Shown here: positions 25,225 through 59,596 of the stretch, in pieces
How positions within the stretch are numbered: the first letter of the stretch is position 1
How the letters are laid out: the number at the start of each line of letters is the position of its first letter
Virus record (IMG/VR): IMGVR_UViG_3300042350_003801
Reading direction: 5' to 3' (one strand)
DNA: 64,000 nucleotides
From: a virus
Taxonomy: Duplodnaviria > Caudoviricetes
Notes under the pieces: model-generated
Database searches by the model: none
Told to the model about the DNA's origin: nothing
The model's input: the letters and a program-made list of their open reading frames with translations, nothing else
Program-made: the position numbers and the translations under genes

Positions 25225-25258
25225 TATTTATAGTAACACTATGTTACGTTTTTGTCAA
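25225..25258 (-). promoter_or_regulatory. psbA composite promoter: sigma70 TTGACA-N17-TACTAT overlapping late TATAAATA, with a GTAAC-N5-GTTAC palindrome in the spacer
   Basis: Read directly on the minus strand. Confidence 0.75.
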
Positions 25259-25917
25259 TGAGTATTTGTGCTGGTTGAGGGATCGTCCAGGTTATCAAAC
25301 ATAAGAAAGAAAACTGGTTGCCGGCCCCGTTCTTCCAGAATGTGTCGTCCTATTAATTCACATGATGCTGCTAATACGGCAGAGGTGACTTGTAGGGTTA
25401 AAGCAGACCAACAACCATTAGCTGGATTATAGCCGTAAGATGATTGTAATAGTGCATCATACTGGTCCTTAACATTATTAATTGGGGAGGGTTTTACAGA
25501 TGAAGCCGGATACTCACTAAAGACAATATCTGCTACCTCTTTTGCAATATTCTCAGCTTCTTGTCTGGCGTCCCAAGAAACACTTTCAGCGGCTTTTCTA
25601 GAATTTAGCCAGGTTAAAAGTTTGGCTGCACTCAAGTTATTTGTTCCAATAGCCTCATCTAAGGCTGCATCTGCGGCAGCCAAGCTATGACTAAGCTCGG
25701 GAAAATTATTGAACCGTATTTTTACTTCATTCCATTGTTTTTCCGTAAGAGTATCAATATATTTCCAAAAGTCAATAACGGCTTGATAGTTTGGTCCAAG
25801 GTAATATTGGGGATACCACAATATTTTGGGGTCGTTTATTTTTTCGCTAAATTTACTGTGCGTTTTTGAGAATGGAAAATGTTGTAGTAAATGAGATGGT
25901 AGTTTAAAGTCTGTCAT
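25255..25917 (-). CDS. GPNY/NFW paralogue family member 1 (no tandem array)
   Basis: YLGPNYQAVIDFW..IDTL..KQW...ELIGRHILEE.G..PVFF.MF. Confidence 0.75.
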   Translation of the reverse strand: MTDFKLPSHLLQHFPFSKTHSKFSEKINDPKILWYPQYYLGPNYQAVIDFWKYIDTLTEKQWNEVKIRFNNFPELSHSLAAADAALDEAIGTNNLSAAKLLTWLNSRKAAESVSWDARQEAENIAKEVADIVFSEYPASSVKPSPINNVKDQYDALLQSSYGYNPANGCWSALTLQVTSAVLAASCELIGRHILEERGRQPVFFLMFDNLDDPSTSTNTH

Positions 25918-25959
25918 AATTCTCCTTGTGTTAAATGTTTATTTGGTGTCACTTGTCCA

Positions 25960-26205
25960 TTACCTCTTATAATACTCAATTGTTTTCTTATTAATCTCAA
26001 TCCTCTGGTCTACTTCAAAAGTATCATTCAATGTATATTCTTCAATATCAATCTTTGGGCCTTTAATTCCGGTAGATTTTTCTACAAGAGCGAAAGATTC
26101 TTCCAACAACATCATATTCACTTTCGCTAGATGATAATCATCAAACAACCCACATTGATGAGGTTCTTCGTGGGAGTAATAGTAATAAAGTGAGTAGATT
26201 GTCAT
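25960..26205 (-). CDS. Hypothetical protein
   Basis: ORF track; overlapping-gene operon. Confidence 0.6.
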   Translation of the reverse strand: MTIYSLYYYYSHEEPHQCGLFDDYHLAKVNMMLLEESFALVEKSTGIKGPKIDIEEYTLNDTFEVDQRIEINKKTIEYYKR

Positions 26206-26759
26206 TTGTTTTCAGTAACAGTAAACCTTTGAGTAAGGAAGTCACCAATGATGTGCATAAAGTTACTCCATCTAAAGTATCTTTCCTTAGTGGTATAAAA
26301 GAGTTCAATATCTTCTGCACAAAGAAACTGTGAGTTATTCTTTAAAATGCTTTCTACAATATTAATATCAAAGTCCCACTGCTCGGCAATCTGTTGAGCA
26401 GTCAACCAGCCATATCTAGATTCCTTGATTGCAAAAACAATTGTAGAAGTTGTTTCTTCTAATGTATTAAAATGTTCAGCAACAAGAGCTTCAACATCCA
26501 CTGACTTGATGGCCGCTCTTACTTGGTCTAGAGAAAGGGTTGGTTCACCTGAATTTCGATGGTCTTCCAGGGCAGTTGTGCCGGTTTTAACATCTTCTGC
26601 ATACTCTAAACCGATCATAAACCGACGAGCAATAATTTGTTCAAAGGCTTCTCCCAAACTGTGCGCCACGCCATCATAATGGTCATTACCTTCGGGACCA
26701 TCATATAATGACCACTCATAATGGTCATTTTCTACTCTATGCCATATTTCAATGTTCAT
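26202..26759 (-). CDS. Hypothetical protein
   Basis: ORF track; overlapping-gene operon. Confidence 0.65.
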   Translation of the reverse strand: MNIEIWHRVENDHYEWSLYDGPEGNDHYDGVAHSLGEAFEQIIARRFMIGLEYAEDVKTGTTALEDHRNSGEPTLSLDQVRAAIKSVDVEALVAEHFNTLEETTSTIVFAIKESRYGWLTAQQIAEQWDFDINIVESILKNNSQFLCAEDIELFYTTKERYFRWSNFMHIIGDFLTQRFTVTENK

Positions 26760-26937
26760 TCCGTTCTCCTTTTGCTCTATCTTCAGAATAAACTTTGGTT
26801 GCTATCTTGGCAAGTTCAAGATAAGTTTTAAACATTTTTTCTTGATTTTCTGCTCCCCATTTACAAACAACTCTATAAGAAACTTTTTCCGTTATAAGCC
26901 TAGTGTAAATGTTTGCTAAAAGTTCTTCGTCGTTCAT
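26749..26937 (-). CDS. Hypothetical protein
   Basis: ORF track; overlapping-gene operon. Confidence 0.55.
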   Translation of the reverse strand: MNDEELLANIYTRLITEKVSYRVVCKWGAENQEKMFKTYLELAKIATKVYSEDRAKGERNEH

Positions 26938-27504
26938 TTAAACCCCTCCAGATTCTTGAAATGTATTAAACCTAATTTTTCCATTGCTAAAAACTGTAAT
27001 TGGAATATCCTCTTCACCTACGATTAATGTTTGGTCCCATTTCTCGCTATAGGAGTTTCCCCACCAATCTGTACGAGGTAAATATGCCCGGTATCCTTCC
27101 ACAGTCCTTTCAATTTTTACTATAACAGTTCCGAGTTTATTTCCATGAACCGGATAATTTCCATTGATATACCACTGAGATTTTTTATCTCTAAAAACTA
27201 TTTTTAATGCCCAGGATACAGCAAAGCCATATTCACCAATTTCCATTTCATTGATAGGCTTTTCTTTTTTCACTGCAGAAATCTTATAATTATTCCCCTC
27301 AAGTATTTTAACTCTTTCTTCCAGAGACTCAATTCTATATGTCAATGAAAGGTCCTCGTCTTCCGGTTCACATAATCCGAGAGCGTTTATAATTTCATCC
27401 ATATATTTTTCAATGGAAGTTAATCTTTTTCTTGTCCCATCAACAAAATCTTTAACCCACCAACGTTTTTCAATCATAATCGTGCTCTGCTTTTTGTTCG
27501 CCAC
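26938..27504 (-). CDS. Hypothetical protein
   Basis: ORF track. Confidence 0.65.
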   Translation of the reverse strand: MANKKQSTIMIEKRWWVKDFVDGTRKRLTSIEKYMDEIINALGLCEPEDEDLSLTYRIESLEERVKILEGNNYKISAVKKEKPINEMEIGEYGFAVSWALKIVFRDKKSQWYINGNYPVHGNKLGTVIVKIERTVEGYRAYLPRTDWWGNSYSEKWDQTLIVGEEDIPITVFSNGKIRFNTFQESGGV

Positions 27505-57710: not shown

Positions 57711-57811
57711 TGGTTGTTCTCCGTTGATATGGTTATCTGGATTTCTCCATTGACCTAAGAGTAACACATTAGTTTTCTTTATGGGTGGTTTGGTGGACAG
57801 TTTAGAGACTG

Positions 57812-58222
57812 TCACAGGTATTCGAGGAATTTAACAAAGAAAAGGGGTAAATCTTTTTCCAAAAGTTCGTGCATAACCATCAACTCAAGTGTTATCCAGC
57901 TCATTAAATAACCAAATCCACGGTGTGATGAAATTTCTCGGTCTTCACAAGCAACAATAACACCATTCCATATATCGTCTTCAAATTCATATTTTTCGGT
58001 TTCAACTAATTCAGTAATGCGTTTATAACTTTGAGTTATTATTTCAAAAAAGATTTCCTCGTAGGCCGTTCCCAATATTCTCGCCTGTTCACAATTTAAT
58101 CCGTCAATGAACCACCAGAAGTTCAAGACTGTTTCGTAGTTTGAGCCAAGATACTTTTCTGGTTCTTCAATAATAACTGGGTAATTTTCAGAAATTTTAA
58201 GGTGAATGAATGAGTAGTTCAT
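57812..58222 (-). CDS. GPNY/NFW family member 8
   Basis: [22 protein letters not shown]...WITLELMVMHELLE. Confidence 0.75.
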   Translation of the reverse strand: MNYSFIHLKISENYPVIIEEPEKYLGSNYETVLNFWWFIDGLNCEQARILGTAYEEIFFEIITQSYKRITELVETEKYEFEDDIWNGVIVACEDREISSHRGFGYLMSWITLELMVMHELLEKDLPLFFVKFLEYL

Positions 58223-58689
58223 AATTTATCAAAAAGAGGAACAAACAATAAATCCTTACCATCGTCCAAAAGCGTGTGCATACCAATTAGTTCATAAGTG
58301 GCATTCCAGGCGGCATCCCCGGCGGCATCCCTGGCGGCAGCCCAGGCGGCAATCCTGGCGGCAGACATGGCGGCATTCCTGGCGGCAGCCCCGGCGGCAT
58401 CCCTGGCGGCATCCCTGGCGGCATTCCAGGCGGCAATCCTGGCGGCAGACATGGCGGCATTCCTGGCGGCAGCCCCGGCGGCAGCCCAGGCGGCATTCCT
58501 GGCGGCATCGTCTAGGGCATGATAACGGCGGGCAACTTCATTCCATTGGTTCTCGGTAAGACCATCAATAAACCACCAGAAGTTAATGACGGTTTCGTAG
58601 TTTGGTCCTAGAAAATTCTGTGGATTTGTTAGGGCTTCAGGTTTTTGAAGGCAGTTGGAGAAGTTTTGATGTGCTTTTGAGTGTTTCAC
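58219..58689 (-). CDS. GPNY/NFW family member 9 with a 17-unit xxAA array
   Basis: Conserved flanks plus tandem 12-nt units. Confidence 0.8.
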
Positions 58690-59150
58690 TTTTGCTGCTC
58701 CACTTTAAAATCATTGAAATATTCCCGTTGAATCTTATCACCAAGGACCAAACCAAATCCCCCACAAAAAAGGGCAATAATAAGAACAAAACTATATGCT
58801 CTACCGTTTTCGGGTTTTAGAAGTTCTTTAGATGTTTTTGTTGTTAGTTTTGTTGCAAACCAGGCGCTACTACTACCAAACAAAAACGTTAAAAAGTATG
58901 GTGTATAAAACACAAAGAGCCATATAAAAATTCCCAGTCCAATCAAGGTCATTGTTCCATCGGGACCATCGGTGACCGGAATTTGAATAGAATGCGACGA
59001 AACTTCACGAATGTTTCGGATTTTATCTGGAGTAACGTGATAGATATTGCAAATCTGTTCTGTTACACCATTGTAACTACTGGAGTTAATTTCTACAGTT
59101 TGCAACCCAGAATTGCTCCCGAGCCAAACATCTGCTTTGTAGTTGGCCAC
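58686..59150 (-). CDS. Membrane protein (about three hydrophobic segments)
   Basis: Hydrophobic stretches in the C-terminal half. Confidence 0.7.
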   Translation of the reverse strand: MANYKADVWLGSNSGLQTVEINSSSYNGVTEQICNIYHVTPDKIRNIREVSSHSIQIPVTDGPDGTMTLIGLGIFIWLFVFYTPYFLTFLFGSSSAWFATKLTTKTSKELLKPENGRAYSFVLIIALFCGGFGLVLGDKIQREYFNDFKVEQQK

Positions 59151-59152
59151 TG

Positions 59153-59596
59153 TTAAAAGTTAAAAAGAGGAACAAACAATAAGTCCTTACCGTCATTCAA
59201 TAGAGTATGCATACCCATTAGTTCATAAGTGGCAGCCCAGGCGGCATTCCCGGCGGCATCCCAGGCGGCATACCTGGCGGCAGACCCGGCGGCATTCCAG
59301 GCGGCATTCCTGGCGGCATTCCTGGCGGCATTCCTGGCGGCATTCCCGGCGGCATTCCAGGCGGCATTCCTGGCGGCATTCCTGGCGGCATACCCGGCGG
59401 CATCCCAGGCGGCATCGTCTAGGGCATCATAACGGCGGGCAACTTCATTCCATTGGTTCTCGGTAAGACCATCAATAACCCACCAGAAGTTAATGACGGT
59501 TTCGTAGTTTGGTCCTAGAAAATTCTGTGGATTTGTTAGGGCTTCAGGGTTTTGAAGGCGGTTGGAGAAGTTTTTATGTGCTTTTGAGTAGTTCAC
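59153..59596 (-). CDS. GPNY/NFW family member 10 with a 15-unit xxAA array
   Basis: Conserved flanks plus tandem 12-nt units. Confidence 0.8.

Follow-up and report, generated by a model that had tools for sequence, protein, structure and literature searches.

A phage-restricted multigene family with a constant helical frame and a variable middle, a possible repertoire of binders in a T4-like lake phage

The question raised by this locus is why a phage should carry ten diverged copies of one small gene in a single stretch of its genome, and what the products of these copies might do. The window, which is the whole stretch of 64,000 nucleotides analyzed here (IMG/VR virus record IMGVR_UViG_3300042350_003801), is part of a T4-like myovirus genome of ~250 kb that was assembled from lake water. 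The gp6-like baseplate wedge protein encoded at 11301-13211 shares 55% identity with its counterparts in Synechococcus and Prochlorococcus phages, and the proteins discussed below map to one contig of 250,336 bp. A preliminary description, made from the sequence without database searches, had reported a ten-member paralogue family, named here by the first coordinates of the open reading frames (ORFs). The members are small all-alpha proteins of about 120-160 aa, and their genes make up a multigene family restricted to phages. Among the functions considered, the most likely one, with a rough probability of 0.45, is that of a repertoire of binders or inhibitors in which each paralogue would have its own variable partner from the host or from a rival phage, as suggested by the sequences and by structural modeling.

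All ten ORFs (25255, 39346, 44787, 46741, 47394, 52149, 52559, 57812, 58219, and 59153) are present and lie on the minus strand. Their alignment reproduced both of the motifs originally quoted, with invariant P, L, G, N, F, and W residues in the N-terminal part and an invariant E in the C-terminal part. The conserved first ~55 residues contain S-K-x-H, P-E-x-F-L-G-P-N-Y, N-F-W, and E-Q-W, and the last ~30 residues contain A-T-x-E-L-I-x-x-H followed by F-x-P-L-F. A hidden Markov model (HMM) was built from the ten, as had been proposed; run against all segments of the window in six frames, it recovered exactly these members, with E values of 9e-33 to 2e-58 versus 1.2 for the next-best segment. 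A broader family HMM returned the same ten and nothing more. The middle segment takes the three forms described before: it is absent in 44787, whose HMM match (E 9e-33) falls into two pieces corresponding to the N and C parts; unique in 25255, 46741, 52149, 52559, and 57812; and a tandem array in 39346, 47394, 58219, and 59153.

The two conserved parts had been proposed to form a two-part helical scaffold presenting a variable surface, and the model, the column entropy, and the substitution rates support this proposal. An AlphaFold2 model of 57812, built from a 108-sequence alignment, is all-alpha with nine helices (predicted local distance difference test score, pLDDT, 93.5; predicted template modeling score, pTM, 0.89). 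Residues 1-57 and 101-136 of the model correspond to the conserved parts, and residues 58-100 form a helical hairpin with helices at 60-73 and 81-94. Column entropy is 2.06 bits in the N part, 3.37 bits in the middle, and 2.37 bits in the C part, and the middle ranges from 21 to 62 aa in length across the family. Additionally, the nonsynonymous rate (dN) of the middle is about twice that of the N part in syntenic orthologue pairs. As modeled, the hairpin between the conserved ends is under hardly any constraint in either sequence or length. A match to a housekeeping fold, which the preliminary description had named beforehand as evidence against its view, was looked for and none was found. A Foldseek search with the confident model returned no clear relative among solved or predicted structures, and a profile search of the PDB sequences was empty at E<=1. 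One structure, PDB 8OWS chain A from the PT1(Em) toxin/PIM1(Em) immunity complex (bioRxiv 10.1101/2021.10.19.465003), is a lead only, as its score lies within the chance range for helical proteins and the chain may be either of the two partners. Prediction of a homodimer gave a score of 0.13 against a mark of 0.42.

The family extends well beyond the window. When 1.84 billion cluster representatives were searched exhaustively with a profile, 400 clusters (50% identity) matched with E<=0.001, and for 261 of these E was 1e-10 or lower. Most of the representatives are 120-140 aa long, and a word-based search with an array-bearing copy matched 317 further proteins. The nearest Atlas clusters are viral. 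Four more clusters of array-bearing proteins (P0011, P0019, P0021, and P0077, where P-numbers denote homologous protein clusters) come from the window's own contig outside the window. In a complete related phage genome of 247,932 bp (G001), 41 family matches were found, mostly in tandem runs of two to six genes. Cultured phages gave a different picture, as none of the 50,697 phage records examined matched three members by tblastn or resembled a 16-kb part of the region by megablast. In 185,579 cellular species genomes, a hand-made GPNY..NFW pattern had four matches, about the number estimated by chance and none of them a family member; this pattern overlooks variants such as GPNW or DFW, which makes the cellular test a partial one.

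The remark that the family was not recognizable proved fair, as Pfam contained no match for the ten window proteins, 108 diverse members, or 116 array-bearing members. The scans were also free of Imm5 (PF14423), and Imm5_like (PF21805, gathering score 25 bits) matched neither the ten window proteins nor the 116 array-bearing members at E<=1, nor the 108 diverse members at E<=0.1, nor any of the six frames of the 41-copy genome at E<=1. Array-bearing copies matched PHROG 8332, 18326, and 3416, all of unknown function, with E values of 1e-10 to 1e-13 in the array region only, whereas no PHROG was found for array-less copies or for the diverse members P0152, P0137, and P0218. A search of the literature for earlier accounts of a family of this kind in phages returned nothing relevant. 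The family is new with respect to the curated databases and the literature searched, while variable multigene families and coding minisatellites are already known kinds of element.

Comparison of related genomes provided evidence on whether the copies are maintained. A related metagenome contig (L001; L-numbers denote such contigs) is syntenic with the window at 48.2-58.4 kb, where the DNA is ~80% identical, and 57812, 52559, and 52149 each have a one-to-one orthologue on it. Together with the orthologue of 25255, these give four syntenic pairs with pairwise ratios of nonsynonymous to synonymous rates (dN/dS) of 0.20-0.36, and the copies are therefore real genes that evolve fast under purifying selection. 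In a maximum-likelihood tree of 77 copies, those from the window and those from the 41-copy genome form separate groups, with two label changes, a count that low being reached in none of 500 shuffles. For the most part, therefore, the expansions are specific to a lineage, and each phage lineage enlarges its own set of copies by tandem duplication. The earlier suggestion that expansion on this scale reflects arms-race selection was borne out in part: the expansion is real and lineage-specific, a pattern expected of conflict genes, but positive selection was not supported, as pairwise dN/dS stayed below 1 wherever it could be measured. Anti-defence action and host-protein binding, the two examples given there, are putative activities. 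The same data bear on the idea that the copies are functionless or selfish duplicates, kept only as long as tandem duplication outpaces decay. Such an origin would suit the decayed copy in the window, the stop codons in three matches of the 41-copy genome, and the fast turnover of the family. However, the dN/dS values of the orthologue pairs, the 38 of 41 copies whose frames are intact, and the strong conservation of the fold-defining residues over 400 clusters make it very improbable.

The array-bearing copies are one young subgroup, whose hairpin became a 12-bp coding minisatellite. The unit, GCC GCC NGG NNT, encodes four amino acids, A-A-x-x. A hexapeptide unit was rejected, since both Tandem Repeats Finder (TRF) and unit parsing gave a period of 12 bp. 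Codon use was counted over 11 distinct arrays, which together comprise 159 units and come from six or more contigs. All 318 alanine codons are GCC, the third codon is AGG, GGG, or TGG in 143 of the 159 units, and the fourth is GAT, AAT, TAT, or TCT in 144; elsewhere in the window GCC makes up only 20% of alanine codons, and AGG and GGG are likewise minority codons. Among the four array copies, silent differences number 0-5 per 57 codons in the flanks versus none in 244 array codons. The variable residues across 119 homologues are G, W, and R (375, 374, and 356 occurrences), followed by Y, D, S, and N, and the lengths of these homologues step mainly by 4 aa, with 81 of the 119 on one ladder. 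Higher-order blocks are common to different arrays, such as AAMS-AARI in 39346 and 58219. Metagenome contigs of four sequencing runs break at every array, and the unique DNA between arrays is identical in samples from 2020 and 2024. The arrays thus have in-frame head-to-tail units, differences in copy number, and homogenized silent sites, the features of a coding minisatellite.

A dedicated mechanism, such as a diversity-generating retroelement (DGR) or another targeted mutator, might diversify the arrays in place of slippage and selection. Variation is indeed focused on unit positions 7, 10, and 11, the would-be adenines of a GCCGCCAGGAAT template, and G, W, and R are nearly equal in number, as a randomized first base of NGG would produce. 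The silent sites are invariant even between phages with 15-25% divergence in the flanks. On the other hand, array length changes in 4-aa steps, unlike in DGR targets, and in 18 of the 159 units the variation falls on positions 8, 9, or 12, which would not be adenines. Hardly any C occurs at positions 7 and 10 (3 of 318), although CGG would still encode arginine, and C at position 11 occurs nearly always as TCT, which suggests that a small number of unit types spread by duplication. TRF and pattern searches found no non-coding template array in the window, 12-bp arrays being confined to the four genes, and no reverse transcriptase domain was found among the ten large window ORFs scanned. On the basis of the variable length, the non-adenine changes, the scarcity of C, and these two negative results, the arrays are read here as a minisatellite, molded by slippage, by exchange, and by selection, rather than as the product of a retroelement, for which we see very little chance. 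It is nevertheless striking, and not fully explained, that silent sites are so uniform even between phages that have diverged.

What such proteins do is suggested by the way in which they vary. The frame is constant and the hairpin free, the diverged copies number in the dozens, and their turnover is specific to lineages, a combination that best fits a repertoire of binding proteins, each with its own partner. In the favored reading, the constant N and C parts would be a folding frame and the hairpin a contact surface, through which each paralogue may bind, and probably block, a different variable partner, which could belong to the host, as a defence or toxin protein, or to a competing phage. 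Together the paralogues would then act as stoichiometric inhibitors with a range of targets, much like a poly-immunity locus. In the array copies, specificity could shift fast through gain, loss, and exchange of units, with selection acting on the two exposed residues per unit and rapid turnover keeping the silent sites uniform. Several copies are strongly acidic (isoelectric point, pI, 4.4-4.8), and together with the tandem arrangement of paralogues this is a weak hint of an inhibitor- or immunity-like role.

Several points weigh against this binder repertoire. The binding function is putative, and with no pairwise dN/dS above 1, diversifying selection is not supported for the copies that lack an array. 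We know of no toxin or defence gene that would be the target; no toxin domain was found among the ten large window ORFs scanned, the neighbors of the family not having been systematically searched. The array-bearing copy 47394 was modeled with low confidence (pLDDT 66, below 50 in the array core), as two helices around an undefined stretch, and a 4-residue period does not match one face of a regular alpha-helix over many units. Additionally, the invariant polar residues N (of GPNY) and E (of ATxEL) could be catalytic instead of structural.

The last point leads to the possibility that the N and C parts constitute a small all-alpha enzyme or a ligand-binding pocket, marked by invariant N, E, and W and a frequent H, with the middle as an unimportant insertion site. 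The invariance of G, N, W, and E across 108 diverse members would be accounted for, as would the conservation of the hairpin-less copy 44787. We nevertheless consider an enzyme distinctly unlikely, as around forty paralogues of one enzyme in a 248-kb phage are hard to explain, no enzyme family or fold was matched, and the LGPN and NFW motifs resemble helix-capping and core residues.

A different role is suggested by the position of three copies. 59153, 58219, and 57812 lie directly downstream of, and on the same strand as, a ubiquitin-like (Ubl) conjugation cassette of the phage (59951-63666), and the corresponding cassette of the complete related genome (92.7-94.6 kb) also lies among family copies, at 89.7-90.4 and 95.9-102.2 kb. 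Family members might therefore be substrate adaptors, the frame docking on E2, E1, or JAB and the hairpin selecting the protein to be tagged. In that related phage, the JAB-like gene (L021 18293-19453; G001 92665-93771) even has 43 residues of the family N part at its start, where the window gene has an N-terminus of its own. This start is probably a deletion fusion with an upstream family gene; the fragment is less than half of the frame, and the JAB-like gene of the window lacks it. With 41 copies in the genome, adjacency to the cassette is expected by chance, and most copies lie far from it. An adaptor function is accordingly a slim prospect.

The signals upstream of the copies point to common control. 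Fifteen occurrences of a palindromic promoter-like motif lie on the minus strand between 33459 and 62198; each combines an imperfect palindrome (GaCAgtT ... AACTGGCACA) with a -10-like box ~30 nt downstream of it. For 12 of the 15, the distance to the next minus-strand start codon downstream is 62-105 nt. Two directly precede family copies, at 47216 for 46741 and at 40030 for 39346, and the motif is also present in related loci. On the basis of this common motif, the family belongs to one apparent regulon, and the element looks like the site of a dimeric regulator. Sigma-70-type promoters were not enriched (45 found versus 40.6 expected), and the T4-type late promoter (TATAAATA) precedes none of the copies. 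The early expression implied in the preliminary description is putative; what speaks for it is this lack of late promoters together with the shared promoter-like motif.

The absence of late promoters argues against virion-packaged internal proteins, injected with the DNA like T4 IPI-IPIII, with the conserved N-terminus (M-x-Y/I-S-K-x-H-Q-x-F) as a packaging signal. T4 internal proteins are variable anti-restriction factors, which counts in favor of such a role, and T4-type capsid-targeting leaders do occur on the nearby genes 16332 and 16895. However, the leader of these genes, MKTF-x-QF-(I/L)-x-EA, is absent from the family N-termini, which instead belong to the confident part of the fold (pLDDT 95-97 in the model of 57812). 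We regard packaging as quite improbable.

If the members are binders, the array copies might go one step further and constitute a natural combinatorial library, in which every 12-bp unit would keep its two alanines fixed and expose two further residues, chosen from G/W/R and from Y/D/S/N. The lack of any silent variation, also between diverged phages, would in that case stem from a dedicated or strongly biased process of diversification and homogenization, by which a lytic phage would retune its anti-host binders in ecological time. We consider this extension unlikely.

For a genome type that is usually economical, around forty genes of one family, some 6% of a 248-kb genome and independently expanded in related lineages, point to a strong and changing selective pressure, and conflict with host defences or with other phages is its most plausible source. 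The combination of a confident fold with the lack of a curated name or clear structural relative makes the family a tractable entry into unknown freshwater phage biology. The repeat-bearing subgroup, in addition, is naturally modular, and the residues that would determine its specificity are legible in the DNA; it is of interest for the question of how new specificities arise in phages and could be of use as a scaffold for protein engineering.

The coordinates of the copies, their arrays, and the promoter-like motifs are collected in Table 1.

Table 1. Family copies with their orthologues and arrays, and promoter-like motifs. Positions refer to the window unless a related contig is named.
Feature	Position	Strand	Details
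Family copy	25255..25917	-	220 aa, unique ~110-aa middle insert; HMM E 6e-55
Orthologue of 25255	L026/L027		84% aa identity, dN/dS 0.31
Family copy	39346..39957	-	203 aa, 50-aa N-terminal extension, 17-unit array
12-bp coding minisatellite in 39346	39421..39624	-	17 units; TRF period 12, 17.4 copies
Family copy without middle hairpin	44787..45143	-	118 aa, Thr/Pro/Lys-rich tail; homologue P0212
Family copy	46741..47154	-	137 aa, unique acidic middle, pI 4.4; homologues P0132, P0144
Family copy	47394..47828	-	12-unit array
12-bp coding minisatellite in 47394	47487..47630	-	12 units
Family copy	52149..52562	-	137 aa, unique middle; start overlaps stop of 52559 (ATGA)
Syntenic orthologue of 52149	L001 4099-4491		60% aa identity, dN/dS 0.20
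Family copy	52559..53038	-	159-aa ORF; orthologue L001 3414-3803, dN/dS 0.28
Remnant of decayed eleventh copy	~55945-56062	-	Pieces coding for SKAHQNL (N-terminal) and ATNELIGVHT (C-terminal), different frames, no array between
Family copy	57812..58222	-	136 aa, unique acidic middle; the modeled copy
Orthologue of 57812	L001 236-700		dN/dS 0.36
Family copy	58219..58689	-	156 aa, 17-unit array
12-bp coding minisatellite in 58219	58303..58506	-	17 units, higher-order 7-unit block repeated
Family copy	59153..59596	-	147 aa, 15-unit array; first gene downstream of Ubl-like cassette
12-bp coding minisatellite in 59153	59234..59413	-	15 units
Promoter-like motif starts	62198, 50957, 50312, 49688, 48828, 47216, 45626, 43723	-	
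Promoter-like motif starts, continued	42013, 40030, 39343, 38043, 37556, 37094, 33459	-	

The ORF boundaries of three copies extend beyond their presumed starts. Copy 44787 probably begins at the ATG giving MSYSN (110 aa). The coding sequence of 47394 is likely 47394-47813, from the ATG giving MNYSK (139 aa), the length of the 100% identical protein P0004, and that of 52559 likely comprises 127 aa from MISKCHQ, as in P0126. The N-terminal extension of 39346 is kept in P0158. The remnant of the decayed copy is identical to 47394 and 58219 at 22 of 23 nt, and the segment 54011-56154, which holds this remnant and a 600-aa ORF of unknown function, is absent from the syntenic contig L001. Among longer fused forms, only tandem double-domain proteins were found. 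One protein, P0201 (L076 5001-5900), has two family domains joined by a ribbon-helix-helix-like linker, an observation too weak to build on. Rarer architectures are represented by P0191, P0218, and L029 12057-13355, and one rare form carries a ~100-aa N-terminal extension with a C-x-C-A-Q-G motif ahead of the family domain.

The window has several other features of note. A PolyA_pol-head nucleotidyltransferase (51310-52086) and a UvrD-type helicase (28698-30224) are encoded on the minus strand among the copies. A short TCTTCA-type repeat at 48231-48284, encoding an acidic run on the minus strand, varies between lake metagenome samples, and contigs of three runs end or join differently there. 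A minus-strand ORF of 3554 aa (634-11298) adjoins the baseplate wedge gene. A plus-strand TnpB-like ORF (17751-19361) with OrfB_IS605 and Cas12f1-like TNB domains is 95.6-95.8% identical in DNA to stretches of an unrelated-looking viral contig (L018/L040), which suggests a recently mobile element.

Finally, the family can be compared with several known systems. Coding minisatellites under concerted evolution include the NANP repeats of Plasmodium CSP and bacterial contingency repeats. The arrays share with these the in-frame head-to-tail units, variable copy number, homogenized silent sites, and common higher-order blocks, but differ in that variation at three fixed bases of each unit follows a 3 x 4 combinatorial code and in that at least eight paralogues per genome carry them, inside a folded scaffold. 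DGR targets such as Mtd of Bordetella phage BPP-1 are similar in that variation falls on a few NNT/NGG-type codons in the 3' part of a gene, beside a conserved stretch; in the arrays, however, length varies, non-adenine positions change, and no template repeat accompanies them in the window. The residue set G/W/R plus Y/D/S/N is very like the minimal alphabets of synthetic antibody libraries. With regard to whole families, those of MASP in Trypanosoma cruzi (PMC2691823) and smorf in Babesia bovis (PMC3459096) also combine constant ends with a hypervariable or repetitive middle in tens of copies that take up several percent of the genome, yet they are eukaryotic surface antigens, whereas the phage proteins are helical, look cytoplasmic, and have no homology to them. 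Poly-immunity loci of polymorphic toxin systems are tandem arrays of paralogues (Zhang et al. 2012, PMC3482391), and Imm5 and Imm5_like together with these loci resemble the family in their small, mostly alpha-helical proteins, tandem diverged paralogues without an adjacent toxin, and Ala-rich A-A-x-x stretches. Although no family member reaches either Pfam model, and the genes described here reside in a lytic T4-like phage with no cognate toxin known, PF21805 is found on 16% of the members of one viral Atlas cluster near the array copies.

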